This document shows, piece by piece, positions 243-41,433 of a stretch of DNA of 64,000 nucleotides. Numbering within the stretch: position 1 is the stretch's first letter; the number at the start of each line of letters is the position of its first letter. The DNA comes from Heptranchias perlo (taxonomy: Eukaryota). The notes under the pieces are model-generated. The model was not told where the DNA came from. It worked only from the letters and a program-made list of their open reading frames with translations, and ran no database searches. Location: positions 29,264,001 through 29,328,000 of the forward strand of contig NC_090336.1 in the NCBI RefSeq assembly GCF_035084215.1, read 5' to 3'. The translations under genes were made by a program, and so were the position numbers.

Positions 243-253
243 CCCCCTACAAA

Positions 254-272
254 TGGCGACCCAGATGGGACT
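254..272 (+). promoter_or_regulatory. Primer-binding site complementary to the 3' end of tRNA-Arg(CCG)
   Basis: TGGCGACCCAGATGGGACT, 2 nt after the LTR end, is the reverse complement of the vertebrate tRNA-Arg-CCG end ...AGTCCCATCTGGGTCG-CCA (tRNA sequence recalled from memory). Confidence 0.85.
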
Positions 273-324
273 TTGGCAAAAGGGATGTGACACATTGGAC
301 ACTGATTTGGAAGAGAGAACTGTA

Positions 325-2076
325 ATGGAAGAGAGGATTTCAGATTATGTGTTCAGTAAGGTGAATATGGAAAAAAAATGGGTCACTAATCTGTTAAAGG
401 CTGGGCGCCCGGTAGATGCTGCAGCGAAATGGACAGGAGGGAAGGATCATAAAAAATCCATAGAAAAGGCAGTCTGGCTGATGTGCTTCAAGAAACAGAT
501 CCAGCTTTTGGACAGGCTCGTTGAAGCAAAGGCAGCTGATATTCGGCAGTCAACTCTTGAAGTCCAAATAAAGGCCCTATCAGGGGAGAAGTTACTGTTA
601 GCATTGCAGACTCTGAACCAGGAAAGGGTGCAGTTAGTGGGGGAGCATAAGACCCAGCAGGAATATTTACAGTGTCAGGTCACTGAGGCCAAGAACAACG
701 AGCTGAGGTTGCGGGAAAAGAATGCCCGCCTAGCAAGTCAAGTAAGAGAGCAGGAGGAGAAAGTAAAAGGCTTACAGGCAGCCTTTAAGATAGTGAGCGC
801 ACAGAGGTTTGAAGATACAGACCATGGCCCCTGCCAGAAGCAGATAGAGAGTCTGAACCTTGCTCTAAGGACGGCAAAAGGCATGGTATGCCTCATAAGC
901 CCTAGTGCAGCCCAGGTCGACTTCACAGGGAACCTGGGGAGAACGGTTCAGACACCACAGGTAGTGCCAAGGGACGACCTGGTTGAGGAGCAGGAGGGCC
1001 CACGACCACCACCCGTAGCGCCAAGCTTTAGCGAAATCTGGCAGGAGAGGGGGGTGGAATTAGGGGCAGAAGCAGAGGAGGAAAACCCCCAGCAAGAGAG
1101 GCTGGGACCGGGGCCGATGTGCCCGGCCCGGCAGCAAAGGTTCGGCCCGCCAGCTGGTAACGGGGATGAGGGACCCCTCCAAAACCAGTTCGTAGTTCCC
1201 CACGGCACCCAACAGCTTTGGGCCATGGTAAGCCATTTAACTAAACTTGCTGCAAATGGGGACCCCTCAGTCCACTTCAGGGAAGTGGAACAAGCAGCAA
1301 GCATCAACGAGTGCAATGATGCTGAACAGGCCAAAATGCTGCTATTCTCCCTGGAGAGTCAGCTCTTTCAGTCCCTCTCTGACCAATGAAAGATGGGACA
1401 GTGTGATTATGGGGAGCTCAAGGAGGAAGTTCTTGAGGCCATGGGGATGAATGAGGGAAGTCCTTTCTCCCGGGTGGAAAAAACAGTGCAGCTCGTAGGA
1501 GAAACCCCGCAGGCTTTTGCAGACAGGTTGTGGCCGGTGTATAGGAGCGCATGCAGTGGGATGCCTAACCGGGCTAACCTGGACCAGGATCAGCGGGCCC
1601 ACTGGCTCCGTTGCCTGGTGGCAAACAGCTTGCCACAGTTCAGGGCCACGGCAGGAATGTGGTTTGACCCAAAGAGTCCCCTGACTACCGAACTCACAGT
1701 GGTCAGACAATTGACCATAGCTTACCGTAATGGTAAAGGAACCGATGCACACCCACCTAAAGGGAAAGTGCATGAAATGAAACCCGGCCAGGGTAGGAAG
1801 GAGTGGCATCAGGAAGGGAATAACCCTTCCAGCACAAAACTCAACTGTTATGGGTGTGGGAAGGATGGACACTGGAGGAAGGAGTGTAAGAATCCTTGGA
1901 AAGATAACAAGGGAAAGAATTCCTCAACCCCAGCCCAGAAGGCAGAGACAGGAATCCCTCCCGCCACGGTCGAGTCATTTTTGGATGCCATGAGAACCCT
2001 ATTGACTGGCCCAGGGAAGGTAGCAGCCACCACCGGCGCTCTGACCCCATCAGCCCTATCTAACCCACAACCCTGA
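325..2076 (+). pseudogene. gag: gag (coiled-coil N-terminus, capsid-like region, CCHC zinc knuckle) with an internal stop at 1387-1389
   Basis: ORFs 238-1389 and 1393-2076 are in the same frame; CYGCGKDGHWRKEC = CX2CX4HX4C. The start is uncertain (ATG 253 overlaps the PBS; ATG 325 has good Kozak context). Confidence 0.85.
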
Positions 2077-5000
2077 CTGGAGACAGCGCAGCCTGTTTAC
2101 CTGTGTTCCCTTACCTACGACTTATGGAAGAGACCCCTCGTTGAGATGGAGGTAGAAGAGGTAAAGGGGACCTATCTGTTGGACACGGGAGCATCATGTA
2201 CCGTGATCCATTCAGCTAACCCCACCACCTCACCTCTATCTAACGGGGTCCCATACAGTCTGTCGGGATTCACAGGTAAAGAACAGGCTGGCTCATTTTA
2301 CATCCCGCTGAACATTCGTTTAGGAACACTCCGCTCTAAGTGGGCCTGTGTCCTAATGAAGTGGGAAGTGGAGGGTGGAAAAGGGATCCTGGGAGCCGAC
2401 TTTATTGTAGGCCACGGGATCCTAGTGGATTTGAGGAATCACTGCCTGTGGGGAGCAAATACAGGAAAGGAAGGCGGAGTAGTAGTCATCCCAGGGAAAC
2501 AGGGGAAGGGGACCCTGTGCACCATGAAGCCTCAAGAGGGTTATAACCTCGAACTCATGGTCAGCAATACCCCAAGGGAGTTCCAGGCATTTGTGCGAGC
2601 CCACCTAGCCACATTTGCCACACACAAACACGACTGTGGGAGGGTCAACGGGTTCGAGGTCAGTGTAGACGGGGACCCTATGGCCCGACCACAAAAGCAA
2701 TATAACTTCCCCAGGGAAGCGGAGCCAGACATGGAAGCAGCCATGTCCTCTTTAGTGCAACAGGGCGTCCTGAGACCGATAGCCACCCACGTGAACTCTC
2801 CACTGTGGCCGGTTAGAAAACCGGACAACTCCTGGAGGGCCACAGTGGACTATCGGGTGCTCATCAGTAACATCACAGCCTGTGCACCCACGGTAGCAGC
2901 AGTTGCCGACCTGATAGGAAGTATCCCAGCATCCGCGACCACTTTCACGGTGCTGGATATCTCCAACGGGTTTTGGTCCATCCCTTTAAGGAGAGAGGAT
3001 CAGTACAAGTTTGCCTTTACCTTTAAAGGGCAACAGTACACCTGGAACTGTCTGCCTCAGGGCTTCCACAATAGCCCCAGCATTTTCCACCAATGCATGG
3101 CAAACAGTTTAAAGGGCTTCAGCCAGCCCAGGCAGCTGGTACAATACGTGGATGACCTGCTCCTATTCACCGATTCGAGAGAGGAGCATGGCCCACTTCT
3201 GGCCGAACTGCTGGAACTGCTCGGGCAGGAAGGTTTTAAAGTGAACCGAAAGAAAGCACAGATTGACCAGCAGGAGGTGAAATTCCTGGGCCTGACAATA
3301 CGCGCTGGGGAAAGGGCCATAGATAAAGCTAGAAGGGAATCAGTACAGGAGTTACCAGTCCCCAACACAGTCATGGGAGTGAGATCGTTTCTAGGGCTAA
3401 CTGGGTACTGTAGAGACTTCGTTGAGGACTATGTGGCCACAGCAGCCCCTCTGCTCCGACTCCTGCATAAGGGAGTGGAGTGGGTTTGGGATGAGGGTTG
3501 CCAGGCAGCATTTGTCAGGCTCAAGAAAGATCTGCAGACCGCACCAGCTCTAGGGGCCATAGATGGAGGGAAAGAGTTCTTACTGGAGGTAGCAGCCAGC
3601 GGGGACAGCCTGAGTGCTGTGCTGCTCCAAGAGCGGCATGGCAAGCTGAGACCGGTGGTCTACTCCTCCAGGATACTCACAGATGTGGAGAAGAGCTACT
3701 CCAATTGTGAAAGGCACCTCTTGGCCACATATTGGGCTGTGAAAAGATCGCTGATCTTCACAGGCACCTCTCCCATCACCCTCCTCACCCATCACATGCC
3801 CACCCAGATGCTCCTGGACGGGAGAATCAAGGATGGGACAGTGAGCAGTGCCCGCATTGCTCGCTGGACCCTGCTTCTCTCACAGATGGACCTGAAAGTA
3901 AAAGGGCTCTGCGAGTCAAAGCTCGCAGCTAACCTGATATATCCTGGAACAGCCCACCGGTGTTCCATAGAAGGGGTTTGGGAAGTAAACATAGGTTTAC
4001 GGGCCGGGATACACCCCACAGGCCGTGAAATCTATGTGGATGGCTCCAGCACAGTATCTGCTGGTGAGCGACTCACAGGGTGTGGAGTTTATGACCCAGC
4101 GGCAAACCTTGCCCTGGCAATTAAGCTCCCCAGCACCATGAGCGCCCAGCAGGCTGGACTGTCCGCGGTAGTGTACGTGGTTACACACCCCGAGATCTTC
4201 CCCACCCCATACACGATTTGCTCGGACAGCATGTTCACATGCAATTCGTGTACAGAGTACCTGGCCATCTGGTCCCGCCGCGGATACACCTCCGCTGACG
4301 GGAGACCCCTCACAGTGAAACCCTTGCTGGAGAAAATCTTAGCAGCAGTGGGGGAGGAAGGGGAGGTTTTCATCCATAAGGTGAAAGCCCATTCCTCCGC
4401 AGAACCCCGGAGTGAGAGCAACCGGCAGGCCGACGTGCTAGCTAAGGAGGGTGCCCGCACAGGCACTTTCTGGGACCCATTTGGGTCCCGTCCTATAGCA
4501 GCAGTCACGGGTAGGAATGGGACACAGGGGAGTGCAGGGGTAGCTTTAACCCCGGACCTTAAGACGGTCCAAACCCAAGACCCCGTCCTCAAGGCAGTCC
4601 TCAGTGCAGTGGCAGAAGGGAAAAGGGTAGAGGGCCCTTACAGCACAGCAGTCCTCTCTGTAAAGGAGGGCATGCTGTTTAAGGGAGAGCAATGGGTTGT
4701 ACCGCAGCAGCACAGGAGGGAATTCCTTCAACTGGCCCATGAGGGTCCCGGAGCGGGGCATCCCGGGCCTGAGACCACCTGGCAGCGGGTGGAACAGGCA
4801 GGATGGTGGCCAGGACTCAGGGAAGATGTCCGCGAGTTCTGTGCCAGCTGTCTGGTGTGTGCTGCTAACAACCCTGACCCCCACAAAAGGAAAGTACCTA
4901 TGGGACACATCAGGAGGGTAGAGGGACCATGGCAGTCGATCCAGGTCCACTACATCGGGCCCCTACCCACCGCCCAGGGAGGCTATAAGTACTGCCTAGT

Positions 5001-5967
5001 CCTGGTGGATGTGTTCACAAAGTGGGTAGAAGCCTTCCCTTGTCAAACAGCCACGGCTATGAGTACAGCCAGGATCCTGGTCAGGGAGGTGTTCTCACGA
5101 TGGGGGCTACCACAGTACGTGGAGTCCGACCAAGGGAGCCACTTTACCGGGCAGGTCATGCAGAATACCCTTATGGTACTTGGCATAAAGGGGAAATGGC
5201 ACGTTGCACACAACCCACAGTCCTCAGGGATTGTAGAGAGGATGAACAGAACCTTGAAAGAAAGGCTGAGGAAAGAGACGGTAGACTCACCTAGAAAGTG
5301 GGTAGAAGTCTTACCGTTGGTCCTAATGGGGATCCGAGCCAGCCAGTCAAAAAGCACGGGGTATTCCCCACACGAGCTCATGACTGGTAGGGTTATGCGG
5401 ACCCCCACCCATGTGCTAGCCCCGGTGCTCACGGAGGGTCAGCTCAGAGAGGTGAACCGGGACAGCTTCGTCTGGAATCTGTTTGAACATCTTAAACAGG
5501 TTCACTGGCAGGCTGCTAGCAACATGGGAAAACAGCATCGGAGTAACCGACTGCTGTTAGAACCCCGTACGCACCACGAGTGGGAGATAGGGTATCAGGT
5601 TATGGTTAGGAATTTTGCTCGGGTAGGCAGTCTAGAACCATTATACATGGGGCCCTACAGCATTGTAGATAAGGCAAGCCCCATGGTATACGCCATAAAG
5701 CTGCCTAGGCGCACCAAATGGTTCCACATTAACCAATGTAAGTTGTTTAAATCGGAGAGAAGGGAACAGCCAGTTGGGGCAAGGCAAGGTCTGAGGATAA
5801 AAATCCTCAGCCCGCAGCAGGAGCAAACTCACAGACTGCACAAGCGGGTGCAATTACTTGTTTTAAGGGAAGGGCCATCCCACCCACCGTTTGGGACACT
5901 CCCCCGCTCATCTGGGACTCAGACGAGGTGGGACCTGAGGGCAGAGAGTTACCTGCCCCTGACATAG
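2077..5967 (+). CDS. pol: pol polyprotein: protease, RT, degenerate RNase H (tether), second RNase H, integrase
   Basis: LLDTGA (PR); LPQGF...YVDD (RT); LEVAAS...YSNCERHLLA (first RH lacking the catalytic Asp); IYVDGSS...CSDS...HKVKAHS...RQAD (second RH); H-H-C-C zinc finger, ESDQG and SSGIVERMN (IN). The frame is open from 2077 and matches gag. Confidence 0.93.
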   Translation: METAQPVYLCSLTYDLWKRPLVEMEVEEVKGTYLLDTGASCTVIHSANPTTSPLSNGVPYSLSGFTGKEQAGSFYIPLNIRLGTLRSKWACVLMKWEVEGGKGILGADFIVGHGILVDLRNHCLWGANTGKEGGVVVIPGKQGKGTLCTMKPQEGYNLELMVSNTPREFQAFVRAHLATFATHKHDCGRVNGFEVSVDGDPMARPQKQYNFPREAEPDMEAAMSSLVQQGVLRPIATHVNSPLWPVRKPDNSWRATVDYRVLISNITACAPTVAAVADLIGSIPASATTFTVLDISNGFWSIPLRREDQYKFAFTFKGQQYTWNCLPQGFHNSPSIFHQCMANSLKGFSQPRQLVQYVDDLLLFTDSREEHGPLLAELLELLGQEGFKVNRKKAQIDQQEVKFLGLTIRAGERAIDKARRESVQELPVPNTVMGVRSFLGLTGYCRDFVEDYVATAAPLLRLLHKGVEWVWDEGCQAAFVRLKKDLQTAPALGAIDGGKEFLLEVAASGDSLSAVLLQERHGKLRPVVYSSRILTDVEKSYSNCERHLLATYWAVKRSLIFTGTSPITLLTHHMPTQMLLDGRIKDGTVSSARIARWTLLLSQMDLKVKGLCESKLAANLIYPGTAHRCSIEGVWEVNIGLRAGIHPTGREIYVDGSSTVSAGERLTGCGVYDPAANLALAIKLPSTMSAQQAGLSAVVYVVTHPEIFPTPYTICSDSMFTCNSCTEYLAIWSRRGYTSADGRPLTVKPLLEKILAAVGEEGEVFIHKVKAHSSAEPRSESNRQADVLAKEGARTGTFWDPFGSRPIAAVTGRNGTQGSAGVALTPDLKTVQTQDPVLKAVLSAVAEGKRVEGPYSTAVLSVKEGMLFKGEQWVVPQQHRREFLQLAHEGPGAGHPGPETTWQRVEQAGWWPGLREDVREFCASCLVCAANNPDPHKRKVPMGHIRRVEGPWQSIQVHYIGPLPTAQGGYKYCLVLVDVFTKWVEAFPCQTATAMSTARILVREVFSRWGLPQYVESDQGSHFTGQVMQNTLMVLGIKGKWHVAHNPQSSGIVERMNRTLKERLRKETVDSPRKWVEVLPLVLMGIRASQSKSTGYSPHELMTGRVMRTPTHVLAPVLTEGQLREVNRDSFVWNLFEHLKQVHWQAASNMGKQHRSNRLLLEPRTHHEWEIGYQVMVRNFARVGSLEPLYMGPYSIVDKASPMVYAIKLPRRTKWFHINQCKLFKSERREQPVGARQGLRIKILSPQQEQTHRLHKRVQLLVLREGPSHPPFGTLPRSSGTQTRWDLRAESYLPLT

Positions 5968-6667
5968 GTTTAGAAGAGGTACAGCCTGAGGACAGAAATC
6001 CCCAGCCAGCGGCAGTGGAGATTCCACAGACCGCACAAGAGGGGACAGTGACTCGAGTTAAAGACTCACCAGCCAGAAAACCCCGACCAGCCAGAATCCC
6101 TAGAAGGCCCCCACGAACACCACGGCCAAAGAAACCGTGGTCACCGGCTCCCCAGTTTAAAAGGGCAGCCCCTCAAGTCAGGGATCGATCTGAGCACAGG
6201 GGTCCCCAGCCAGCAGCCGCAGGTTGCGAGGGACCAAAGGTACAGGACAGGGCAGCCACACCGAAGGGAGTAGTGTGTTGTAACCCGAACAGGGATTAGC
6301 CTGGCCGCCCGGGGACGGGCGGCGGATGTACAGAGCTTCTGTTATTTAATTTTGAGATTGTTAAGTTTGGGTGTTTTAGTTAAATTTTATACAAGGTGGT
6401 TGGTAGTTTAAGTATTATTGTTTACCGTGTATTACTTTTTCTATGTATGTACCGTATTTTCCAAGTGGTGCAGGGGTGTTGGACCCCCTCCGTGCTTGGA
6501 TATGAATGTAACTGAATTCTTACCTGTGTCTGCATCTGAACAGAATGTATGTTTTGGGTCTTAGATAGGTAAACTACAGGGGAAGGTTGGCTCTCGAGGA
6601 TCGAGAATTTTGCTCACCTTTGACCAGTATGAGACTTGAAGCAAGGTTAAAGTATCACAGGGGGGAG

Positions 6668-7851
6668 TGTAAGATTCTCAAAATTCACAGATCCCCCAGA
6701 GAAAAACCCTAAAGAAATTCACCTTTACCCTGAGTATGGGAAAACTTTGGCCATTGACTATCATCCTTAAATGGAAGGATAGTTGAGAGGTCACCAGACG
6801 AAATCAACAACACACACACCGTGGAACTTCGGAGAATTAATGCTTCAGACATGACTCTGTTTTAATGTAAAATCGACAGCAGGTGGTCGACACTCAGCAC
6901 GAATTCAAAAGGCCGTCTCCCATTGAAAGAGATAACTGTTCCAGACATGGTGGGGCCATTCCTTTGTTTAAAGCAAAACCATCAACACCTAGGACGTTGG
7001 ATACAAAAGGAAGCCTTATGTGACAAGCTCCAAATCAGAATTAAAACAATGACACATTGGGAGAAGCAATTTGCAATATGATTGGGACCATCAAAAGGCC
7101 ATCAAAGAACTTTGTATGAACTGTTTAAACAGACCATTGTAAGAGAGACAGCCACAAGGCAAAAGCTCTCTCTCTCTCTCTGGCTTGCTGGCTCTGATGG
7201 GCTGCTTGTGTTGGTTCTGCCTGTGTCTGGAAAGAAGAGCAGTTTGCAGTTTCCAGCAGACAACAAGGAAAGCAGTTCGACAGGGAAGGGCAGCAGCTCT
7301 AGAAGCTGGCCGAAAAACAAGAAGAGACCAGAGCAACAGCCCCAGTGACCGTCAGACACCTCGCGGCAACAAGGGCCTTACGAAACAACCAACCGAATAT
7401 TACCACCAACAAACCGGGTGATATTGAGCCACTGCGACCAAAGAAAACCAACTCGGGAGAAAACCGAAGATCCGCAAAGTTGCCACTCTACAATCTATTT
7501 CTGACTTACCTCTGGGTGAATTACTGTCAAGGTTTCGTTTGGTGAGAATTATCCCTGGTCTTTTAGAGTCCAACCCAGCTAGTACAGTGGGATTGGGAGG
7601 GGTGAGGTGTCCTTCTACTGTAATTTCCCTCGCGTGTACTGTAGTGTTCCCCATTTTATTAGAGTGTAAAGATTGTTGTGTTGTATTTCCTCTCTTGAAT
7701 AAAGGTCAAAGTTTCTTGCACCAAAATCAGTTGTCTGCTGCACTTTGTCACAACCCCCAAATAAGTCCAAGGTCTAGAACCCAGGGAGTGGGAGCGATTC
7801 GGACCGCTCAGAAGTCAGAGGTGAAGCTGACACACACCACCACCCCCTACA
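6668..7851 (+). repeat. 3' LTR (1184 bp)
   Basis: Starts TGTAAG directly after the purine tract, ends CCCCCTACA, has AATAAA at 7698-7703, and matches the inverted solo copy at 56231-57399. Confidence 0.93.
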
Positions 7852-7903
7852 TTCTTTATTAATCCCACCTTCTCTTTTTGAAATTTGATCCTTTGAGACT
7901 CAC

Positions 7904-7984
7904 CTCCTTCTTTGCGTTGATCATCTGCACCTTGCTCTATATTCCCAGTATTGTTTTGTTCTATTGGGGAGGTTTTCTGTGATT
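7904..7984 (-). CDS. Candidate tail exon type B (81 bp, phase 1/1; ESQKTSPIEQNNTGNIEQGADDQRKEG); representative copy
   Basis: Pyrimidine-rich tract plus AG, and donor G|GTGAGT. Other copies: 9381-9461, 10861-10941, 12338-12418, 13818-13898, 15295-15375, 16771-16848 (78 bp), 18237-18317. Confidence 0.55.
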
Positions 7985-8697
7985 CTCCATGAATAGAATA
8001 AAACACGATAAACAGTATAAACCCCATAGTGTAGAGGAACAGAAACAGAAGTGATAATGCTATTGGCCAATATTTAAAGAATAAACAGGTATTGCATTGT
8101 TGAGCACGATGCAACTTTAACGAAGGAGAAGTGTCATTATTTCTAAGATGGCATCGCATTAAAGACCCTTAGAATAATGCAGAATTGTTTCTCAGTGAGA
8201 ACACTTACTGCTCGTAGGCTTCTCTCGCTTCCCTGAATTTACCTCAGTCAACCGGCTTCAAATAATATTGGTGTAATTGCACAACTTGGTTATTCAAGTG
8301 CTCCAGTCAAGTTCCAGCACAATATTTGATTCTGATCCAATCATTGTGCACATACTGTACTTTTATGTAAGGATACATCAGTGGAGTTACCAGAAGAAAA
8401 TTACATCAATTCTGAATTTGAGAAAAGAGGAGATTCCTCTTGTCTGAATACGATGGCTCCTGTAACAATGCATCTTTCCATCAATAATGTACCGGGGTGT
8501 CAGTCAAGATCTATGCACACGTACGGAACAGGTCTTCAACACACTACCTTCTGACTGAGGGGCAAGAGTGCTGAATGAATCAACTAATATTTCCAGGAAT
8601 TTGGGAAGTCACACTGTGCAGACTTCATTTCCTGGACTACAAACAATTATTTTCTTCACTTTCAACATTAGATAAGATGTATCACCAAGTTTATTAC

Positions 8698-8811
8698 CTC
8701 CACCATCCTTTACACTTGTCTTTTGTTGTTCCTCAGTGCTTTGTGGATCAGGGTCAGTTTGTGCTGCCTTTTCTCCATCATCTGTTCCTCTTGTGTCCTT
8801 TGGCGTTGACA
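8698..8811 (-). CDS. Candidate tail exon type A (114 bp, phase 1/1; VSTPKDTRGTDDGEKAAQTDPDPQSTEEQQKTSVKDGG); representative copy
   Basis: Acceptor ttcctttgtttgagcgcag| and donor G|GTAATA. Other copies: 10175-10288, 11655-11768, 13132-13245, 14612-14725, 16088-16201, 17551-17664, all open and 114 bp. Confidence 0.6.
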
Positions 8812-11800
8812 CTGCGCTCAAACAAAGGAACGAACTTTCAGTTTTAATATTTCAATGGCTTTGAGCCAAGAAACCTCAACCCATTCAGACAATCTGAATT
8901 TTAGCTTCTGAAGTCCTGTAGTATTGCTGCACCAGTGGGAAAGCAGGGGAGAGGACACTTTATTCGCCTGAACAGACAATTTCAGACCCTGCCCCAGATG
9001 CCAGGGACAGGGGTTATCTGCATGGATGGGGAAGGCCACTGGAGGCTGCAAGGGTGCATGAGCAACACCCGCCCCGACATTGGCTCTGAACCGTGGAGTG
9101 GCGCCATTTCACTCCAGGGATAATAGAGGGAGCAAAAGTAGGACCCAATGAACAGGGTCATTTTTTTCATCATGGCTCTCAGTGTATTAAGGGATACAAT
9201 TTTAAAAGGGAATCATTCGCCTTTGGGATCAATTAGCTTTCTCTAACTGTAACACTTTCCTACATGTCTCACTTAAATAAGTGATGACATTGTTTTCTTT
9301 GGTCTATTACTTTTCCCAACATATTGTCTTCTTTATTAATCCCACCTTCTCTTTTTGAAATTTGATCCTTTGAGACTCACCTCCTTCTTTGCATTGATCA
9401 TCCGCACCTTGCTCTGTATTCCCAGTATTGTTTTGTTCTATTGGGGAGGTTTTCTGTGATTCTACATGAATAGAATAAAACACGATAAACAGTATAAACC
9501 CCATAGTGTAGAGGAACAGAAACAGAAGTGATAATGCTATTGGCCAATATTTAAAGAATAAACAGGTATTGCATTGTTGAGCACGATGCAACTTTAACGA
9601 AGGAGAAGTGTCATTATTTCTAAGATGGCATCGCATTAAAGACCCTTAGAATAATGCAGAATTGTTTCTCAGTCAGAACACTAACTGCTCGTAGGCTTCT
9701 CTCGCTTCCCTGAATTTACCTCAGCCAACCAGCTTCAAATAACATTGGCGTAATTGCACAACTTGGTTATTCAAGTGCTCCAGTCATGTTCCAGCACAAT
9801 ATTTGATTCTGATCCAATCATTGTGCACATACTGTACTTTTATGTAAGGATACATCAGTGGAGTTACCAGAAGAAAATTACATCAATTCTGAATTTGAGA
9901 AAAGAGGAGATTCCTCTTGTCTGAACACGATGGCTCCTGTAACAATGCATCTCTCCATCAATAATGTACTGGGGTGTCAGTCCAGATCTATGCACAAGTA
10001 CGGAACAGGACTTCAATACACTACCATCTGACTGAGGGGCAAGAGTGCTGAATGAATCAACTAATATTTCCAGGAATTTGGGAAGTCACACTGTGCAGAC
10101 TTCATTTCTTGGACTACAAACAATTATTTTCTTCACTTTCAACATTAGATAATGTGTTTCACCAAGTTTATTACCTCCACCATCCATAACACGTGTCTTT
10201 TGTTGTTTCTCAGTGATGTTTGGATCAGGGTCAGTTTGTGCTGCCTTATCTCCATCATCTGTTCCTCTTGTGCCCTCGCAAATTGACACTGCGCTCAAAC
10301 AAACGAAACAACTTTCAGCTTTAATATTTCAAAGGCTTTGAGACAAGAAACCTCAACCCATTCAGACAATCTGAATTTTAACTCCTGAAGTCCTGTTGCA
10401 TTGCTGCACCAGTTGGAAAGCAGGGGAGAGGACACTTTATTCGCCTGAACAGACAATTTCAGACCCTGCCCCAGATGCCAGGGACAGGGGTTATCTGCAT
10501 GGATGGGGAAGGCCACTGGAGGCTGCAAGGGTGCATGAGCAACACCCGCCCCGACATTGGCTCTGAACCGTTGGGTGGCACCATTTCACTCCACGGATAA
10601 TAGAGGGAGCAAAAGTAGGACCCAATGAACAGGGTCATTTTTTTTCATCTTTGGCTCTCAGTGTATTAAGGGATACAATTTTAAAAGGGAATCATTCGCC
10701 TTTGGGATCAATTAGCTTTCTCTAACTGTAACACTTTCCTACATGTCTCACTTAAATAAGTGATGACATTGTTTCCTGTGGTCTAATACTTTTCCCAACA
10801 TATTATCCTCTTTATTAATCCCACCTTCAGTTCTTTGCTTATTGTTCTTTTGAGACTCACCTCCTGCTTTGCATTGATCATCTGCACCTTGCTCTGTATT
10901 CCCAGTATTGTTTTGTTCTATTGGGGAGATTTTCTGTGATTCTCCATGAATAGAATAAAACACTATAAACAGTATAAACCCCATAGTGTAGAGGAACAGA
11001 AACAGAAGTGATAATGCTATTGGCCAATATTTAAAGAATAAACAGGTATTGCATTGTTGAGCACGATGCAACTTTAACGAAGGAGAAGTGTCATTATTTC
11101 TAAGATGGCATCGCATTAAAGACCCTTAAAATAATTCAGACTTGTTTCTCAGTGAGGTTACTATCTGCTCGTAGGCTTTTCTCGGTTCCCTGAATTTACC
11201 TCAGTCAACCAGCTTCAAATAATATTGGCGTAATTGCACAACTTGGTTATTCAAGTGCTCCAGTCAAGTTCCAGCACAATATTTGATTCTGATCCAATCA
11301 TTGTGCACATACTGTACTTTTATGTAAGGATACATCAGTGGAGTTACCAGAAGAAAATTACATCAATTCTGAATTTGAGAAAAGAGGAGATTCCTCTTGT
11401 CTGAATACGATGGCTCCTGTAACAATGCATCTTTCCATCAATAATGTACCGGGGTGTCAGTCAAGATCTATGCACACGTACGGAACAGGTCTTCAACACA
11501 CTACCTTCTGACTGAGGGGCAAGAGTGCTGAATGAATCAACTAATATTTCCAGGAATTTGGGAAGTCACACTGTGCAGACTTCATTTCCTGGACTACAAA
11601 CAATTATTTTCTTCACTTTCAACATTAGATAAGATGTATCACCAAGTTTATTACCTCCACCATCCTTTACACTTGTCTTTTGTTGTTCCTCAGTGCTTTG
11701 TGGATCAGGGTCAGTTTGTGCTGCCTTTTCTCCATCATCTGTTCCTCTTGTGTCCTTTGGCGTTGACACTGCGCTCAAACAAAGGAACGAACTTTCAGTT

Positions 11801-14800
11801 TTAATATTTCAATGGCTTTGAGCCAAGAAACCTCAACCCATTCAGACAATCTGAATTTTAGCTTCTGAAGTCCTGTAGTATTGCTGCACCAGTGGGAAAG
11901 CAGGGGAGAGGACACTTTATTCGCCTGAACAGACAATTTCAGACCCTGCCCCAGATGCCAGGGACAGGGGTTATCTGCATGGATGGGGAAGGCCACTGGA
12001 GGCTGCAAGGGTGCATGAGCAACACCCGCCCCGACATTGGCTCTGAACCGTGGAGTGGCGCCATTTCACTCCAGGGATAATAGAGGGAGCAAAAGTAGGA
12101 CCCAATGAACAGGGTCATTTTTTTCATCATGGCTCTCAGTGTATTAAGGGATACAATTTTAAAAGGGAATCATTCGCCTTTGGGATCAATTAGCTTTCTC
12201 TAACTGTAACACTTTCCTACATGTCTCACTTAAATAAGTGATGACATTGTTTTCTTTGGTCTATTACTTTTCCCAACATATTGTCTTCTTTATTAATCCC
12301 ACCTTCTCTTTTTGAAATTTGATCCTTTGAGACTCACCTCCTTCTTTGCATTGATCATCCGCACCTTGCTCTGTATTCCCAGTATTGTTTTGTTCTATTG
12401 GGGAGGTTTTCTGTGATTCTACATGAATAGAATAAAACACGATAAACAGTATAAACCCCATAGTGTAGAGGAACAGAAACAGAAGTGATAATGCTATTGG
12501 CCAATATTTAAAGAATAAACAGGTATTGCATTGTTGAGCACGATGCAACTTTAACGAAGGAGAAGTGTCATTATTTCTAAGATGGCATCGCATTAAAGAC
12601 CCTTAGAATAATGCAGAATTGTTTCTCAGTCAGAACACTAACTGCTCGTAGGCTTCTCTCGCTTCCCTGAATTTACCTCAGCCAACCAGCTTCAAATAAC
12701 ATTGGCGTAATTGCACAACTTGGTTATTCAAGTGCTCCAGTCATGTTCCAGCACAATATTTGATTCTGATCCAATCATTGTGCACATACTGTACTTTTAT
12801 GTAAGGATACATCAGTGGAGTTACCAGAAGAAAATTACATCAATTCTGAATTTGAGAAAAGAGGAGATTCCTCTTGTCTGAACACGATGGCTCCTGTAAC
12901 AATGCATCTCTCCATCAATAATGTACTGGGGTGTCAGTCCAGATCTATGCACAAGTACGGAACAGGACTTCAATACACTACCATCTGACTGAGGGGCAAG
13001 AGTGCTGAATGAATCAACTAATATTTCCAGGAATTTGGGAAGTCACACTGTGCAGACTTCATTTCTTGGACTACAAACAATTATTTTCTTCACTTTCAAC
13101 ATTAGATAATGTGTTTCACCAAGTTTATTACCTCCACCATCCATAACACGTGTCTTTTGTTGTTTCTCAGTGATGTTTGGATCAGGGTCAGTTTGTGCTG
13201 CCTTATCTCCATCATCTGTTCCTCTTGTGCCCTCGCAAATTGACACTGCGCTCAAACAAACGAAACAACTTTCAGCTTTAATATTTCAAAGGCTTTGAGA
13301 CAAGAAACCTCAACCCATTCAGACAATCTGAATTTTAACTCCTGAAGTCCTGTTGCATTGCTGCACCAGTTGGAAAGCAGGGGAGAGGACACTTTATTCG
13401 CCTGAACAGACAATTTCAGACCCTGCCCCAGATGCCAGGGACAGGGGTTATCTGCATGGATGGGGAAGGCCACTGGAGGCTGCAAGGGTGCATGAGCAAC
13501 ACCCGCCCCGACATTGGCTCTGAACCGTTGGGTGGCACCATTTCACTCCAGGGATAATAGAGGGAGCAAAAGTAGGACCCAATGAACAGGGTCATTTTTT
13601 TTCATCTTTGGCTCTCAGTGTATTAAGGGATACAATTTTAAAAGGGAATCATTCGCCTTTGGGATCAATTAGCTTTCTCTAACTGTAACACTTTCCTACA
13701 TGTCTCACTTAAATAAGTGATGACATTGTTTCCTTTGGTCTAATACTTTTCCCAACATATTATCCTCTTTATTAATCCCACCTTCAGTTCTTTGCTTATT
13801 GTTCTTTTGAGACTCACCTCCTGCTTTGCATTGATCATCTGCACCTTGCTCTGTATTCCCAGTATTGTTTTGTTCTATTGGGGAGATTTTCTGTGATTCT
13901 CCATGAATAGAATAAAACACTATAAACAGTATAAACCCCATAGTGTAGAGGAACAGAAACAGAAGTGATAATGCTATTGGCCAATATTTAAAGAATAAAC
14001 AGGTATTGCATTGTTGAGCACGATGCAACTTTAACGAAGGAGAAGTGTCATTATTTCTAAGATGGCATCGCATTAAAGACCCTTAAAATAATTCAGACTT
14101 GTTTCTCAGTGAGGTTACTATCTGCTCGTAGGCTTTTCTCGGTTCCCTGAATTTACCTCAGTCAACCAGCTTCAAATAATATTGGCGTAATTGCACAACT
14201 TGGTTATTCAAGTGCTCCAGTCAAGTTCCAGCACAATATTTGATTCTGATCCAATCATTGTGCACATACTGTACTTTTATGTAAGGATACATCAGTGGAG
14301 TTACCAGAAGAAAATTACATCAATTCTGAATTTGAGAAAAGAGGAGATTCCTCTTGTCTGAATACGATGGCTCCTGTAACAATGCATCTTTCCATCAATA
14401 ATGTACCGGGGTGTCAGTCAAGATCTATGCACACGTACGGAACAGGTCTTCAACACACTACCTTCTGACTGAGGGGCAAGAGTGCTGAATGAATCAACTA
14501 ATATTTCCAGGAATTTGGGAAGTCACACTGTGCAGACTTCATTTCCTGGACTACAAACAATTATTTTCTTCACTTTCAACATTAGATAAGATGTATCACC
14601 AAGTTTATTACCTCCACCATCCTTTACACTTGTCTTTTGTTGTTCCTCAGTGCTTTGTGGATCAGGGTCAGTTTGTGCTGCCTTTTCTCCATCATCTGTT
14701 CCTCTTGTGTCCTTTGGCGTTGACACTGCGCTCAAACAAAGGAACGAACTTTCAGTTTTAATATTTCAATGGCTTTGAGCCAAGAAACCTCAACCCATTC

Positions 14801-17800
14801 AGACAATCTGAATTTTAGCTTCTGAAGTCCTGTAGTATTGCTGCACCAGTGGGAAAGCAGGGGAGAGGACACTTTATTCGCCTGAACAGACAATTTCAGA
14901 CCCTGCCCCAGATGCCAGGGACAGGGGTTATCTGCATGGATGGGGAAGGCCACTGGAGGCTGCAAGGGTGCATGAGCAACACCCGCCCCGACATTGGCTC
15001 TGAACCGTGGAGTGGCGCCATTTCACTCCAGGGATAATAGAGGGAGCAAAAGTAGGACCCAATGAACAGGGTCATTTTTTTCATCATGGCTCTCAGTGTA
15101 TTAAGGGATACAATTTTAAAAGGGAATCATTCGCCTTTGGGATCAATTAGCTTTCTCTAACTGTAACACTTTCCTACATGTCTCACTTAAATAAGTGATG
15201 ACATTGTTTTCTTTGGTCTATTACTTTTCCCAACATATTGTCTTCTTTATTAATCCCACCTTCTCTTTTTGAAATTTGATCCTTTGAGACTCACCTCCTT
15301 CTTTGCATTGATCATCCGCACCTTGCTCTGTATTCCCAGTATTGTTTTGTTCTATTGGGGAGGTTTTCTGTGATTCTACATGAATAGAATAAAACACGAT
15401 AAACAGTATAAACCCCATAGTGTAGAGGAACAGAAACAGAAGTGATAATGCTATTGGCCAATATTTAAAGAATAAACAGGTATTGCATTGTTGAGCACGA
15501 TGCAACTTTAACGAAGGAGAAGTGTCATTATTTCTAAGATGGCATCGCATTAAAGACCCTTAGAATAATGCAGAATTGTTTCTCAGTCAGAACACTAACT
15601 GCTCGTAGGCTTCTCTCGCTTCCCTGAATTTACCTCAGCCAACCAGCTTCAAATAACATTGGCGTAATTGCACAACTTGGTTATTCAAGTGCTCCAGTCA
15701 TGTTCCAGCACAATATTTGATTCTGATCCAATCATTGTGCACATACTGTACTTTTATGTAAGGATACATCAGTGGAGTTACCAGAAGAAAATTACATCAA
15801 TTCTGAATTTGAGAAAAGAGGAGATTCCTCTTGTCTGAACACGATGGCTCCTGTAACAATGCATCTCTCCATCAATAATGTACTGGGGTGTCAGTCCAGA
15901 TCTATGCACAAGTACGGAACAGACTTCAATACACTACCATCTGACTGAGGGGCAAGAGTGCTGAATGAATCAACTAATATTTCCAGGAATTTGGGAAGTC
16001 ACACTGTGCAGACTTCATTTCTTGGACTACAAACAATTATTTTCTTCACTTTCAACATTAGATAATGTGTTTCACCAAGTTTATTACCTCCACCATCCAT
16101 AACACGTGTCTTTTGTTGTTTCTCAGTGATGTTTGGATCAGGGTCAGTTTGTGCTGCCTTATCTCCATCATCTGTTCCTCTTGTGCCCTCGCAAATTGAC
16201 ACTGCGCTCAAACAAACGAAACAACTTTCAGCTTTAATATTTCAAAGGCTTTGAGACAAGAAACCTCAACCCATTCAGACAATCTGAATTTTAACTCCTG
16301 AAGTCCTGTTGCATTGCTGCACCCGTGGGAATGCAGAGGAGCGGACACTATATTCGCCTGAACAGACAATTCCAGACCCTGTCCCAGATGTCAGGGTCAG
16401 GGATCTTCGACATGGATGGGGAAGGCCACTGGAGGCTGCAGGGTGCATGAGCGACACCCGCCTCGACATTGGCTCTGAACATTGGAGTGGCACCATGTCA
16501 CTCCGAGGATACTAAAGGGAGCACAGGAAGGACCCCTAGAATGGGGCCATTTTTTTCATTTTTGGCTCTCAGTGTATTAAGGGATACAATTTTGAAAGGG
16601 AATCATTCACCTTTAGGATCAATTAGCTTTATCTAACTGTAACATTTTCCTAAATGTCTCACTTAATTAAAAGAGGCCTTTTTTCCTTCGGTCTAATACT
16701 TTTCCCAACATATTATCTTCTTTATTAATCCCACCTTCAGTTCTTTGCTTATTGATCCTTTGAAACACACCTTCATTGCATTGATCATCTGCACCTTGCT
16801 CTGTTTTCTCATTATTGTTTTGTTCTACTGTGGAAACTTTCTGTGATTCTACATGAATAGAATAAAACACTATAAACAGTATAAACCCCATAGTGTAATG
16901 GAGCAGAAACAGGAGTGATAATATCTTTGGCCAATATTTAAAGAATAAACAGGTGTTCAGTTGAGCACGATGCAACTTTATCACAGGAGAAGTGTCATTA
17001 TTTCTAAGATGGCATCGCATTAAAGACCCTTGAAATAATGCAGACTTGTTTCTCAGTGAGGTTACTATCTGCTCGGAGGCTTTTCTCGGTTCCCCAAATT
17101 TACCTCAATCAACCAGCTTCAAATAATATTGGCGTAATGGCGCAGCTTGGTTATTCAAGTGCTCCAGTCATGTTCCAGCACGATATTTGATTCTGATCCA
17201 ATCATTGTGCACATACTGTACTTTTATGTAAGGATACATCGGTGGAATTACAGAAGAAAATTACATCAATTCTGAATTTGTGAAAAAAGAGATTCCTCTG
17301 GTCTGAATACGATGGTGCCTGTAACAATGCATCTTTCCATCAATAATGTACTGGGGTGTCAGTCGAGATATATACACAAGTACGGAATAGATCTTCATCA
17401 CACGGCCTTCAGGGAATACAGTATTGAATGAAGCAACTAATATTTCCAGGAATTTGGGAAGTCACACTGTGCAGACTTCATTTCCTAGACTACAAACAAT
17501 TATTTTCTTCACTTTCAACATTAGATAAGGTGTTTCACCAAGTTTATTACCTCCACCATCCTTTACACTTGTCTTTTGTTGTTCCTCAGTGCTTTGTGGA
17601 TCAGGGTCAGTTTGTCCTGCCTTTTCTCCATCATCTGTTCCTCTTGTGTCCTTTGGCTTTGACACTGCGCTCAAACAAAGGAACGAACTTTCAGTTTTAA
17701 TATTTCAAAGGCTTTGAGCCAAGAAACCTCAACCCATTCAGACAATCTGAATTTTAGCTTCTGAAGTCCTGTAGTATTGCTGCACCAGTTGGAAAGCAGG

Positions 17801-18992
17801 GGAGAGGACACTTTATTCGCCTGAACAGACAATTTCAGACCCTGCCCCAGATGCCAGGGACAGGGGTCATCTGCATGGATGGGGAAGGCCACTGGAGGCT
17901 GCAAGGGTGCATGAGCAACACCCGCCCCGACATTGGCTCTGAACCGTTGGGTGGCACCATTTCACTCCAGGGATAATAGAGGGAGCAAAAGTAGGACCCA
18001 ATGAACAGGGTCATTTTTTTTCATCTTTGGCTCTCAGTGTATTAAGGGATACAATTTTAAAAGGGAATCATTCGCCTTTGGGATCAATTAGCTTTCTCTA
18101 ACTGTAACACTTTCCTACATGTCTCACTTAAATAAGTGATGACATTGTTTCCTTTGGTCTAATACTTTCCCCAACATATTATCCTCTTTATTAATCCCAC
18201 CTTCAGTTCTTTGCTTATTGTTCTTTTGAGACTCACCTCCTGCTTTGCATTGATCATCTGCACCTTGCTCTGTATTCCCAGTATTGTTTTGTTCTATTGG
18301 GGAGATTTTCTGTGATTCTGCATGAGTCGAATAAAACACTATAAACAGTATAAACCCGCTAGTGTTGAGGAGCAGAAACAGTAGTGATAATGCCATTGGC
18401 CAATATTTAAAGAATAAACAGGTATTCAGTTGAGCACGATGCAACTTTAACGAAGGAGAAGTGTCATTATTTCTAAGATGGCATCGCATTAAAGACCCTT
18501 AGCATAATGCAGACTTGTTTCTCAGTGAGAACACTAACTGCTCGTAGGCTTCTCTCGCTTCCCTGAATTTACCTCAGTCAACCAGCTTCAAATAATATTA
18601 GTGTAATTGCACAACTTGGTTATTCAAGTGCTCCAGTCATGTTCCAGCACGATACTTTATTCTGATCCAATCATTCTGCACATACTGTACTTTTATGTAA
18701 GGATACATCAGTGGAGTTACCAGAAGAAAATTACATCAATTCTGAATTTGAAAAAAGAGGAGATTCCCCTCGTCTGAATACGATGGCTCCTGTAACAATG
18801 TATCTTTCCATCAATAATGTACAGGGGTGTCAGTCGAGATATATGCACAAGTACGGAATAGGACTTCAATACACTATCATCTGACTGAGGGGCAAGAGTT
18901 ACCGAATGAAGCAACTAATATTTCACGGAATTTGGGAAGTCACAATGTTGTATATGCATTCAAGTCTGCACAATTATTGTTTTCACTTTCAT

Positions 18993-20525
18993 CGAATCAT
19001 AGAAAGTTTACAGCACGGAAGGAGGCCGTTCGGCCCATCGAGTCCGTGCCGAGTCTATGCAAGAGCAATCCAGCTAGTCCCACTCCTCTGCTCTATTCTC
19101 GTAGCCTGCAAGTTTTTTCCTTTCAAGTACTTATCCAGTTCCCTTTTGAAAGCCACGATTGAATCTGCCTCCATCACCCTATATAAGAACATAAGAACAT
19201 AAGAAATAGGAGCAGGTGTAGGCCAATCGGCCCCTCGAGCCTGCTCCGCCATTCAATAAGATCATTGCTGATCTGATCCTAACCTCAAATCTAAATTCAT
19301 GTCCAATTTCCTGCCTGCTCCCCATAACCCCTAATTCCCTTTACTTCTAGGAAACTGTCTATTTCTGTTTTAAATTTATTTAATGATGTAGCTTCCACAG
19401 CTTCCTGGGGCAGCAAATTCCACAGACCTACTACCCTCTGAGTGAAGAAGTTTCTCCTCATCTCAGTTTTGAAAGAGCAGCCCCTTATTCTAAGATTATG
19501 CCCCCGAGTTCTAGTTTCACCCATCCTTGGGAACATCCTTACCGCATCCACCCGATCAAGCCCCTTCACAATCTTATGTGTTTCAATAAGATCGCCTCTC
19601 ATTCTTCTGAACTCCAATGAGTAGAGTCCCAATCTACTCAACCTCTCCTCATATGTCCACCCCCTCATCTCCGGGATTAACCGAGTGAACCTTCTTTGTA
19701 CTGCCTCTAGAGCAAGTATGTCTTGTCTTAAGTATGGAGACCAAAACTGTATGCAGTATTCCAGGTGCGGTCTCACCAATACCTTATATAACTGCAGCAA
19801 TACCTCCCTGTTTTTATATTCTATCCCCCTAGCAATAAAAGCCAACATTCTGTTGGCCTTCTTGATCACCTGCTGCACCTGCATACTAACTTTTCGATTT
19901 TCTTGCACTAGGACCCCCAGATCCCTTTGTACTGCAGTACTTTCCAGTTTTTCGCCATTAAGATAATAACTTGCTCTCTGATTTTTCCTGCCAAAGTGCA
20001 TAACCTCACATTTTCCAATATTGTATTGCATCTGCCAAATCTCCGCCCACTCACCCAGCCTGTCTATATCCCCTTGTAGGTTTTTTATGTCCTCCTCACT
20101 CTCTACTTTCCCTCCCATCTTTGTATCATCTGCAAACTTTGATATGTTACACTCGGTCCCCTCCTCCAAATCGTTAATATAGATTGTAAAGAGTTGGGGA
20201 CCCAGCACCGACCCCTGCGGAACACCACTGGCTACAGGTTGCCTGTCCGAGAATGAACCATTTATCCCAACTCTCTTCTTCCTGTTAGATAACCAATCCT
20301 CCACCCATGCCAGAATATTACCCCCAATCCAGTGATTCTTTATCTTGAGCAATAATCCTTTATGTGGCACCTTGTCGAATGCCTTCTGGAAGTCTCAATA
20401 CATTACATCCACTGGTTCCCCTTTATCCACCCTGCCAGCAGTGCATTCCTGATCCTAACCACTCTCTGTGTAAAAAGGTTTTTCCTCATGTCACCTATAG
20501 TTAATTTGCCAATCACTTTAATTCT
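18993..20525 (-). mobile_element. Nested CR1 LINEs: a younger RT fragment (~19181-20430) inside an older CR1 3' end
   Basis: ORF 19297-20370 has GVPQGSVLGP, KFADD and the CR1 C-terminus; tail (aagaacat)n; CACCCT on both sides of the inner copy. Confidence 0.88.
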
Positions 20526-23250
20526 ATTCAATTCCTGGACTACAAACAATAGTAGATAAGGTCTTTCACCAAATTTATTACCTCCACTGTCCTTTGCATT
20601 TATGTTTTCTTGTTTCTCAGTATTGTGAGCATCAGGGTCACAATACTGCCTTATATATATCACCTGTTTCTCTTGTGTCCTCTGCCTTTGACACTGCAAC
20701 AGACAGAGCACAGGAAGGACCCAATGCACAGGGTCATTTTTTACATCTTTTGCACCCAATGTATTAAGAGATACAATTTTAAATGGGAATTGTTGACCTT
20801 TGGAATCAATTAGTTTTATCTGACACTCTCCTGAATGTCTCACCTTAAATATATGATGATATTTTTTCATTAGGTCAGATATTTACCCAACATATTGTCT
20901 TCTTTATTAATCTCACCTTGAGTTCCTTGCTTATTGATCCTTTCAAACTTGCCTTCTTCATTGCAGCGATCATAGGAACATTGGAACATCGTAACAGGAG
21001 TAGGCCATTCAGTCCCTCGTGCCTGCTCCGCCATTTGATAAGATAATGGCTGATCTGTGCTCTAACTCCATATACCTGCCTTTGGCCCATATCCCTTAAT
21101 ACCTTTGGCTGCCAAAAAGCTATCTATCTCAGTTTTAAATTTAGCAATTGAGCTAGTATCAATTGCCGTTTGCGGAAGAGAGTTCCAAACTTCTACCACC
21201 CTTTGTGTGTAGAAATGTTTTCTAATCTCGCTCCTGAAAGGTCTGGCTCTAATTTTTAGACTCTGCCCCCTACTCCTAAAATCCCCAACCAGCGGAAATA
21301 GTTTCTCTCTATCCACCCTATCTGTTCCCCTTAATATCTTATAAACTTCGATCAGATCACCCCTCAACCTTCGAAACTCTAGAGAATACAACCCCAATTT
21401 GTGTAATTTCTCCTCGTAACTTAACCCTTGAAGTCCGGGTATCATTCTAGTAAACCTACACTGCACTCCCTCCAAGGCCAATATGTTTTCCGAAGGCACA
21501 GTGCCCAGAATTGCTCACAGTACTCCAGGTGCGGTCTAACCAGGGTTTTGTATAGCTGCAGCATAACTTCTGCCCCCTTGTACTCTAGTCCTCTCCATAT
21601 AAAGGCCAGCATTCCATTAGCCTTATTGATTATTTTCTGCACCTGTTCATGACACTTCAATGATCTATGTACCTGAACCCCTAAGTCCCTTTGGACATCC
21701 ACTGTTTTTAACTTTTTACCATTTAGAAAGTACCCTGTTCTATCCTTTTTTGATCCAAAGTGGATGACCTCACATTTGTCTGCATTGAATTCCATTTGCC
21801 ACTGTTTTGCCCATTCACCTAATCTATCAATATCCCTTTGTAATTTTATGTTTTCATCTACACTGCTTATAATCAATACCTTGCTCTGTTTTCTGAATAT
21901 TGCTTTGTTCTATTGCGGGGGGTTCCTGTGATTCTACATGAATAGATAAAAACAATATGAACAGTATAAACCCCATAGTGCAGAGGAGCAGAAACAGCAG
22001 TGATAACGCTATTGACCAATACTGAAAGAGTAGGCATGTATTCTGTTGAGCACGATGCAACTTTATCAAAGTAGAAATGTCGTTATTTCTCAGATTGGCG
22101 CCACATTAAAGACCCTGACAATAATCCAGAATTGTTGCTCACTGAGAATATTATCTGCTGGTCGGATTCACTCTCTGCAATTAATTTTCCTCAGTCAACT
22201 AGCTTCAAATAGTATTGGCAGAATTCCACAACTTGGTTCTTCATTTGCCCCATTTAGGTTCTAGCTTGATATTTTATTCTGATCTAACCATTGTGCAAGG
22301 ATGATGTAAGGATACATCAGCGGAGTTCTCAGTAGAAAATTTCATCAATTCTGAATTTGAGAAAAGAGGAGATTCCTCTAGTCTGAATACGATGGCTGCT
22401 GTGACAATGCAATTTTCCATCAATAATGGACTGGGGTGTCAGTCGAGATATTTGCTCAAGTCCTGGAATAGGACTTCAACACACTACCTTCTGTCTCAGA
22501 GGCAAGAGTATTTCCAGGAATTTGGGAAGTCACACTGTGCAGACTTCAATTCCTGGACTACAAACAATTCTTTTTTTCACTTTCAATAGTACATAAGGTG
22601 TTTCACCAAATTTACTACCTCCACCATCCTTTACATTTGTTGTCTTTTCTTGTTTCTCAATACTGTATACATCAGGGTTATTTTGTGCTGCCTTAACTCC
22701 ATCGCCTGTTTCTTTTGTGTCCTCTGCCTAGACACTGCACTCAAATAAAGGAAAAGACTTCCAGGTTTAATGTTTCAACGGTTTTGAGACAAGAAACCTC
22801 AACCCATTCAGACAATCTGAACTTTAGCTCCTGAAGTCCTGTTGCATTGCTGCACCAGTGGGAAAGCAGAGGAGCGGACACTATATTCGCCTGAACAGAC
22901 AATTTCAGATCCTGTCCCAGATACCAGGGACAGGGATCTTCGGCATGGATGTGGATGTCCCCTGTAGGCTGCAAGGGTGCATGAGCAACGCCCGTCCCGA
23001 CATCGGCCCTGAACCTTGGATTGGCACCATGTCACTCCGAGGACGGTAGAGGGAGCGCATCTTTGGTTTCCAGTATATTAAAATGAAAGAAGGGCTTGCA
23101 TCTATATAGCGCCTTTTACAACCTCAGGACGTCCCGAAACGCTTCACAGCTAATGAAGTACTTTTGAAATTTAGTCACTGAAGTAATGTAGGAATTAAGG
23201 GATACATTTTAAAAGGGCAATCCTACACCTTTGGGATCAGCTAGCTTTAG
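20526..23250. repeat. Diverged, TE-disrupted distal units of the exon array
   Basis: Same unit blocks but more divergent. Exon-A copies are 112 bp (20582-20693) and 116 bp (22619-22734); the exon-B copy is split by a CR1. Confidence 0.88.
20972..21870 (-). mobile_element. 5'-truncated CR1 LINE inserted within an exon-B copy
   Basis: ORFs 21062-21499 and 21442-21876 encode the CR1 RT C-terminus; the flanks rejoin as ...EQGID|RCNEE. Confidence 0.88.
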
Positions 23251-37375: not shown

Positions 37376-37696
37376 CTCGTACAGTGAGTAAAGATTCCAT
37401 TGTGAAATCATCAGGAAATGTTGGGTGCCTCACTACACATCTGTACTTGTCACCATCATCATTCATTGTTGGTTGAATCCTCAGTTGACTGTAAACACTA
37501 AATGTTTTATCACTATTTATGACAAAAGCATTTGTATATTTATCTAACGAAACATTTTCTGTTCTCCATCCTGATATCTTGACCCAGTGGATGTCTAGCT
37601 GCCGAGGATAAAATCCAGTAACATCACATCCCACAGAGTCCTCAGACCCACTCTGGATTGTAATGGATTGTGCGGATAAGCTGATCTTTGGTTGAG
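37376..37696 (-). CDS. NCR3LG1: B7-H6-like gene, IgC1 exon
   Basis: CDVTGFYP, W, NSDKTFSVYSQL and YRCVVRH C1-set motifs; 321 bp, ttttctacacag| ... G|GTAAG, phase 1/1. Confidence 0.88.
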
Positions 37697-41307: not shown

Positions 41308-41433
41308 TATCTAAACAACTAAAATGTTGGTTCACCGCTCCAAGCAATTTCTACCCTGTCATCTTTATATTTATGCACTTTCTGACATCATTGAACACAA
41401 AGATATCACACATGTGTTTTTTGTGATCCTTAC

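Follow-up and report, generated by a model that had tools for sequence, protein, structure and literature searches.

All retroviruses, the lokiretroviruses and the Odin elements carry a dual RNase H (PMC7947760, PMC9040795), and an ancestral RNase H was assigned to lokiretroviruses and foamy viruses (PMC7947760). Lokiretroviruses were found in none of three chondrichthyan genomes in the same report. In-frame stop codons between gag and pol are described in gamma- and epsilonretroviruses and in snakehead retrovirus (SnRV; UAG), with UGA found in SSSV, ZFERV and RMEV (PMC13517186). A UGA gag/pol junction is also present in XtERV-S (PMC8278194), while the available part of a 2026 review of read-through lists only gamma- and epsilonretroviruses and four unclassified retroviruses (PMC13517186). 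SnRV-related endogenous retroviruses (ERVs) were described in elephant shark (CmiERV lineage I, PMC4422223), the SnRV-like clade Huo covers all major vertebrate groups (PMC6001957) and a foamy-like group, CmiFLERV/XtrFLERV, unites shark and frog (PMC5512871). A literature search pairing ERV4 with snakehead found no article.

The provirus analysed here lies in a 64,000-nt stretch of Heptranchias perlo DNA (NC_090336.1, positions 29,264,001 to 29,328,000), referred to as the window. With a probability of about 80%, it is a defective ERV from an early-branching grade of the canonical Retroviridae, in the neighbourhood of SnRV, that expressed Gag-Pol by read-through when active. The locus is a dead copy, ERVs near SnRV are already known from cartilaginous fish, and its value is comparative, since the deep grade from which it comes, between lokiretroviruses and SnRV/class I, is poorly annotated. 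The element may belong to CmiERV lineage I, to clade Huo or to the CmiFLERV/XtrFLERV group.

The provirus is on the plus strand and starts with the last 9 nts of a 5′ LTR (243..251), identical to the ends of the 3′ LTR and of a solo LTR. The DNA upstream of position 243 belongs to a 1477-bp repeat unit, and the 5′ and 3′ junctions fall at different positions of this unit, indicating a deletion that took the promoter LTR together with flanking tandem-array DNA. The hosting array (1-242 and 7852-18991) contains about 7.5 copies of the unit, which are 91-99% identical; the longest frame of the unit has 105 codons, and a diverged copy is found at 21878-23056. An 18-nt primer binding site (254..271, +) overlaps the ATG at 253 and equals the first 18 nts of a published tRNA reverse primer, which carries a Leu label in PMC7393169.

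At the other end, a polypurine tract (6659..6667, +) directly precedes the TGT start of the 3′ LTR, which was delimited by sequence comparison (6668..7851, +; 1184 bp, TGT...ACA, AATAAA at 7698). Once this LTR is included, the provirus runs to 7851, past the polypurine tract where the span of the earlier note stopped. The solo LTR, of the same family by alignment to the 3′ LTR, lies at 56231..57399 (-) and is flanked by a 4-bp target-site duplication, ATAG. Over 1153 aligned columns, 60 substitutions separate the two LTRs (K2P 0.054), which together with the duplication indicates that the family inserted more than once. The hallmarks of retroviruses are present: LTRs bounded by TG...CA, a primer binding site, a polypurine tract, a target duplication and the order protease, reverse transcriptase (RT), tether, RNase H, integrase. 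Despite the published Leu label, the tRNA matching the primer binding site may be an Arg tRNA. In an active element, a single genomic RNA would be transcribed from the 5′ LTR and primed by a host tRNA, integration would generate 4-bp duplications, and recombination between LTRs would leave solo LTRs. No further copy of the coding region, no Rfam match and, with ARAGORN, no tRNA gene were found in the window.

The gag gene (253..2076, +) was delimited with four homologues and a structure model, and starts at ATG 253 or at the conserved ATG 325. The first ATG lies in a segment (253-327) that overlaps the primer binding site, and a MAT start is found exactly 24 residues ahead of the conserved Met in four of five aligned Gags, which points to a very short leader and, throughout the family, to a similar primer site. 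By modelling and Pfam, Gag comprises a helical N-terminus, a long coiled coil (about 454-801), a capsid (about 1120-1734) and a single CCHC knuckle (1846-1887), whose zf-CCHC match falls below the curated Pfam cut-off. The four homologues, three of them full length, were recovered among 7997 candidates and share 36-61% identity with this Gag; one alone has a named source, the skate Rhinoraja longicauda (45%, E 4.5e-157), and this match is the chief indication from homology of a probable chondrichthyan host.

In the modelled Gag, the coiled coil is again long and the C-terminal domain of the capsid best matches the MLV capsid (Z 12.3, rmsd 2.3, 86 aligned residues). The best BFVD matches are class I Gags of fish and amphibians (E 2e-5); a Foldseek search of the PDB with the whole model gave no match with E below 0.001, the MLV capsid coming on top. 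As modelled, the capsid fold is retroviral, though this fold is common to retrotransposons too. A single-sequence model of the capsid reached a pLDDT of 39 and was unusable. A stop codon interrupts the capsid region at 1387..1389 (+), where all three full-length homologues are open, so it is a lesion of this copy.

Counted from ATG 253, the gag-pol frame reaches 5967 and is broken only by TGA 1387 and TGA 2074, the open segments being 226-1389, 1390-2076 and 2077-5967. As the earlier note had read it, gag ends with TGA (2074-2076) and CTG comes next, in a frame open into the protease; the codon after CTG is GAG, and the frame is that of pol. The C-termini of all three full-length Gag homologues fall within one alignment column of this stop, and 2074 is therefore the native end of gag. 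A type II read-through site, an in-frame UGA-CUG, is predicted at 2074..2079 (+) from the sequence and from the ends of the Gag homologues. The note had called UGA-C a context prone to read-through, and UGACUG is indeed a listed type II variant, in alphaviruses. Among the 1238 plus-strand TGA triplets of the window, 15.9% are followed by C and 1.9% by CT(A/G) (four of 88 within the provirus); the junction context is thus modestly unusual, as judged in one copy.

Gag-Pol was very probably made by type II read-through of the UGA-CUG at the 2074 stop. Most ribosomes would halt at this UGA and release Gag, whereas a minority would insert an amino acid at the leaky codon and stay in frame, yielding Gag-Pro-RT-tether-RNase H-integrase. 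The junction codon and frame were read in one copy, and a frameshift would leave identical protein ends. Alternatively, the stop could be a true terminator and Pol could have been translated separately, from a spliced RNA or from a start of its own in the manner of foamy viruses; or the insertion could have come first and the TGA later. We consider this unlikely. Read-through is deduced from sequence and no clear stimulatory structure lies beside the stop, which leaves room for a separate Pol; against it, gag and pol share one frame without a gap, no Met precedes the N-terminal strand of the protease, the Gag homologues terminate at the same place, UGA-CUG is a recognised type II variant and foamy pol sits in a different frame (PMC8278194). 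Foamy viruses also differ from the element in that their Gag has no Cys-His box and their pol has its own start (PMC8278194), whereas the element combines a CCHC box with an in-frame pol.

Other observations bear on how Gag-Pol read-through is judged. No Gag-Pol fusion was present in 7993 long candidates, which is weak evidence. The Gag knuckle was found in none of 20 related Pol proteins, six of which start at most 29 residues from the protease site. The 124 nts directly 3′ of the stop fold no better than shuffled sequences (z +0.99). A hairpin at about 2119-2256 scores z -3.88 against shuffles and ranks seventh of 157 provirus windows; since six of these windows outscore it, it is not claimed and was set aside as a read-through stimulator.

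The domains of Pol were assigned by a Pfam search on the translation of 2077-5964; some of the feature coordinates given here were calculated manually from residue positions. The aspartic protease (2125..2406, +; DTG at 2182) is matched weakly (E 0.002), and the RT (2698..3474, +), with LPQG and YVDD (3145-3156) intact in alignment, strongly (RVT_1, 7e-33). Supporting the earlier description of a degenerate Ty3-type RNase H followed by a second RNase H, Pfam and the alignments agree on two domains. RT_RNaseH_2 (PF17919) and RT_RNaseH (PF17917) match residues 471-603 of Pol (3e-21 and 2e-18), and a separate RNase_H (PF00075) matches residues 651-793 (1e-17). The first domain (3487..3885, +) has no acidic residue at the usual catalytic motifs, either here or in P0001, a relative with 86% identity; hence it is a tether. 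In a functional element, the enzyme would be the second RNase H (4027..4455, +), while the old Ty3-type domain would have the structural role of a tether.

The integrase (4699..5742, +) contains an HHCC region, a core and an SH3-like domain, with Pfam matches to Integrase_H2C2, rve and SH3 and support from alignment. A frame of 182 codons rich in Pro and Arg (5751..6299, +) overlaps the end of pol; it has no Pfam match, is not env-like and, judging from its sequence, is likely a displaced Pol tail. In the integrase, the first catalytic position (4948-4950) of QVHY (from 4942) is a His in this copy alone among nine aligned sequences, and in the second RNase H, the catalytic position (4156-4158) of QQAGL (from 4147) is non-acidic both here and in P0001. 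These residues and the stop at 1387 are all as the earlier note gave them, and its view of the copy as dead holds because the promoter LTR is gone, the capsid carries a stop and the RNase H and integrase sites are damaged.

For phylogenetic placement, 72 of 266 Pol proteins were selected, P0123 being excluded from the RT tree because its coverage was low; the 194 left out were redundant gypsy and class I, unnamed gamma-like and primate rows. The trees were built without ERV-L, class II, Odin and foamy sequences, none of the 266 screened proteins being from a foamy virus, and the rows for lokiretroviruses (seven), SnRV and WDSV were recognised by motif match to published alignment rows, not by database names. 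In the RT tree (72 rows), the element falls within a 48-row clade with SnRV, WDSV and MuLV (100/98), the seven lokiretrovirus rows form a separate clade (100/99) and 17 gypsy rows split off (100/99). A group of 20 rows (94/86) unites the element with relatives from frogs and coelacanth. The same split between canonical retroviruses and lokiretroviruses is recovered (100/99 and 100/100) in a tree of 29 rows from concatenated RT, tether, RNase H and integrase, in which SnRV plus class I branch above a grade made up of the element and its relatives.

The idea of an ordinary vertebrate Ty3/gypsy element, which the earlier note had rejected, is hardly credible. Pfam does report a Ty3-type RNase H and SH3_Tf2-1, and a Ty3 polyprotein is among the top PDB matches; these are outweighed by the second RNase H, by the best capsid fold match, MLV, and by the RT tree, where the separation of the 17 gypsy rows rules out this identity. 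Metaviridae have a single active RNase H and an RT that groups among gypsy elements, neither of which is true here. Nesting of the RT in standard gypsy clades, which the earlier note had named as fatal to its proposal of a lokiretrovirus, is not seen; that label falls by another route.

That route is the RT and whole-Pol trees (100/98 and 100/99) together with two AU tests on a 29-row subset, which rule out the lokiretrovirus label: grouping the element and P0001 with lokiretroviruses is rejected with p=0.0004, and grouping a wider set of nine rows with them is rejected with p=0.004. A tether tree, made by a quick method, likewise excludes the element from lokiretroviruses (support 98). It is therefore very improbable that the element is an env-deprived lokiretrovirus, which would be the first from a cartilaginous fish, even with several features speaking for it. 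The second RNase H groups with three lokiretrovirus rows (99/92, in an unrooted tree of 15 rows and 154 columns without foamy rows), which fits a retained ancestral RNase H. Among named groups, lokiretroviruses give the best tether and integrase scores, the best integrase scores overall including them, and the in-frame UGA-CU(A/G) junction is like their TGA-CTA. In the integrase tree, the element lies in a polytomy and the two lokiretrovirus rows are neither joined to it nor firmly excluded. Against membership, besides the RT, tether and concatenated trees and the two AU tests, the RT has LPQG and QYVDD instead of the PFG-type motif of lokiretroviruses, it begins at Pol residue 208 compared with 568 in the lokiretrovirus row P0147, reflecting a short protease-RT spacer, and no F-like env is present. 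The element further differs in its CCHC-containing Gag.

The earlier note had taken read-through together with dual RNase H as the mark of lokiretroviruses. The first half of this link is supported by the data, all seven split gag/pol junctions viewed by eye in the lokiretrovirus supplement (Bsp, Dcl, Pyo, Sau, Ofa, Lro and Cne) being TGA-CTA (PMC7947760). Three of the seven were located by motif search, so that the count is not an unbiased sample. In this supplement, the motif extends to TGA-CTA(G/A), a type II read-through motif; six of the seven junctions continue in frame into an annotated pol or protease motif, while that of Bsp is in frame for about 35 codons before the consensus shifts frame. 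About 10 of 24 consensus elements are annotated as one continuous gag-pol ORF, the headings reading 'gag-pol' 20 times and 'pol gene' 24 times (PMC7947760). Read-through is not mentioned in the available main texts on lokiretroviruses (PMC7947760) or Odin (PMC9040795), and a search joining lokiretrovirus with readthrough, in the unhyphenated spelling, found no article. The TGA-CTA junctions of lokiretroviruses are thus previously unreported in that paper's text. The link is not exclusive, however: other retroviruses have a dual RNase H, as does Odin, and other retroviruses have in-frame stops, hence neither feature is diagnostic. The resemblance to lokiretroviruses is real, in the second RNase H and at the gag/pol junction, which would work in a lokiretrovirus-like manner, yet the element is not a member.

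Sequence similarity points to the same neighbourhood as the trees. The RT is 44-61% identical to those of frog, coelacanth and other relatives, 43% to that of SnRV and 31-38% to those of lokiretroviruses. The best Pol homologues are from frog and coelacanth, and the lokiretrovirus RT signature is absent from all 120 best. The nearest relatives with named hosts are from Pyxicephalus (P0002), Aquarana (P0003), Xenopus tropicalis (P0005) and Latimeria (P0009), with 39-44% identity over RT to RNase H. These Pols of frogs and coelacanth, annotated just as NYNRIN-like or similar, form a grade and not a clade in the concatenated tree. P0151, which also belongs to this basal grade, is a full-length Pol with a degenerate RT active site in an unbroken frame and may be a co-opted NYNRIN/CGIN1-like gene. 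The C-terminus of P0002 contains a signal-peptide-like stretch and an Ig-like segment, a tail that could stem from a neighbouring gene, viral or host, fused by annotation.

SnRV is the closest named virus by RT identity, and shares RT motifs and an in-frame gag/pol stop with the element; a Gag coiled coil is presumably also shared, and the Arg-tRNA primer of SnRV may be. SnRV differs in its UAG-GGC stop, its env and its accessory genes. Its position is unstable, being with the element (61/53) in a 29-row RT tree and apart from it in the 72-row RT tree and the concatenated tree, where SnRV joins class I to the exclusion of the element (98/99). XtERV-S (ERV-L, class III) also resembles the element in its in-frame gag/pol TGA, tether and TGT...ACA LTR ends (PMC8278194). 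The two differ in the RT motif (YIDD in XtERV-S, YVDD here), the dUTPase (present in XtERV-S, without a match here), the Cys-His box (absent from XtERV-S, a CCHC box here) and the length of the target duplication (5 bp in XtERV-S, 4 bp here), and XtERV-S has env (PMC8278194).

As the earlier note had reported, env is lacking. Three-frame translation of the roughly 910 nts between the end of the integrase and the polypurine tract, inspected by eye, revealed no env-like frame in this copy. In particular, an F-like env, of the type of the Mononegavirales fusion glycoprotein, is absent from this copy, for which deletion is possible. One may ask whether the family never had env, which would make it an intracellular LTR retrotransposon like Odin, placed on the stem of the retroviruses, or whether a virus lost it. 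Env loss is common among ERVs, one damaged copy with a large deletion cannot establish absence across a family, and both the RT tree and the concatenated tree place the element on the same side as enveloped retroviruses. An origin before env is therefore improbable, though it has some footing: the short interval has no env remnant, the grade of the element is basal in the concatenated Pol tree, and Odin offers a precedent for dual RNase H in the absence of env (PMC9040795). Odin itself is cnidarian and sister to lokiretroviruses (PMC9040795), whereas the split from lokiretroviruses leaves the element with the canonical retroviruses.

A broader reading, which we regard as possible and decidedly tentative, is that the element represents a grade of true retroviruses, uncharacterised and the earliest to branch, found in sharks or skates, frogs and coelacanth, with lokiretrovirus-like ancestral parts under a canonical RT, and that type II UGA read-through is ancestral. 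On this tentative reading, the ancestral parts would be a weakly degraded tether, an RNase H and integrase of the lokiretrovirus type and a UGA-CUR junction, and the family may predate env. If true, UGA read-through would be the ancestral mode of Gag-Pol expression in the lineage of lokiretroviruses plus retroviruses, and UAG-pseudoknot read-through, frameshifting and spliced pol would be derived. Should the junction prove to be both leaky and conserved, it would become possible to test how retroviruses ancestrally expressed Gag-Pol.

Further features lie elsewhere in the window. Degraded env-like frames at 49310-52050 (+) include an RQRR furin-like site, a heptad-like stretch and a C-terminal hydrophobic segment at about 50650; LTR-like DNA follows and no gag or pol lies upstream. 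These frames gave no convincing Pfam match and none to 76 proteins tested, and belong to a different retroelement, possibly one with an F-type envelope. Directly 5′ of them, a Myb/SANT-like fragment (48407-49309, +; Pfam, below cut-off) is possibly a remnant of a Harbinger-type transposon. Pfam also identifies a host gene with immunoglobulin exons of the C1-set and V/I-set types (37308-37802 and 41351-41890, -), which we take to be B7/tapasin-like; about 14 kb upstream of it, and on its strand, is the solo LTR. A minisatellite with a 25-bp period and strong GC skew occupies 24249-26857. LINE fragments are found at 19297-21909, 28811-31681, 45673-46125, 59075-59995 and 62214-63239, part of them presumably CR1-like, and a second LINE family gives an RVT_1 match at 28814-30448.
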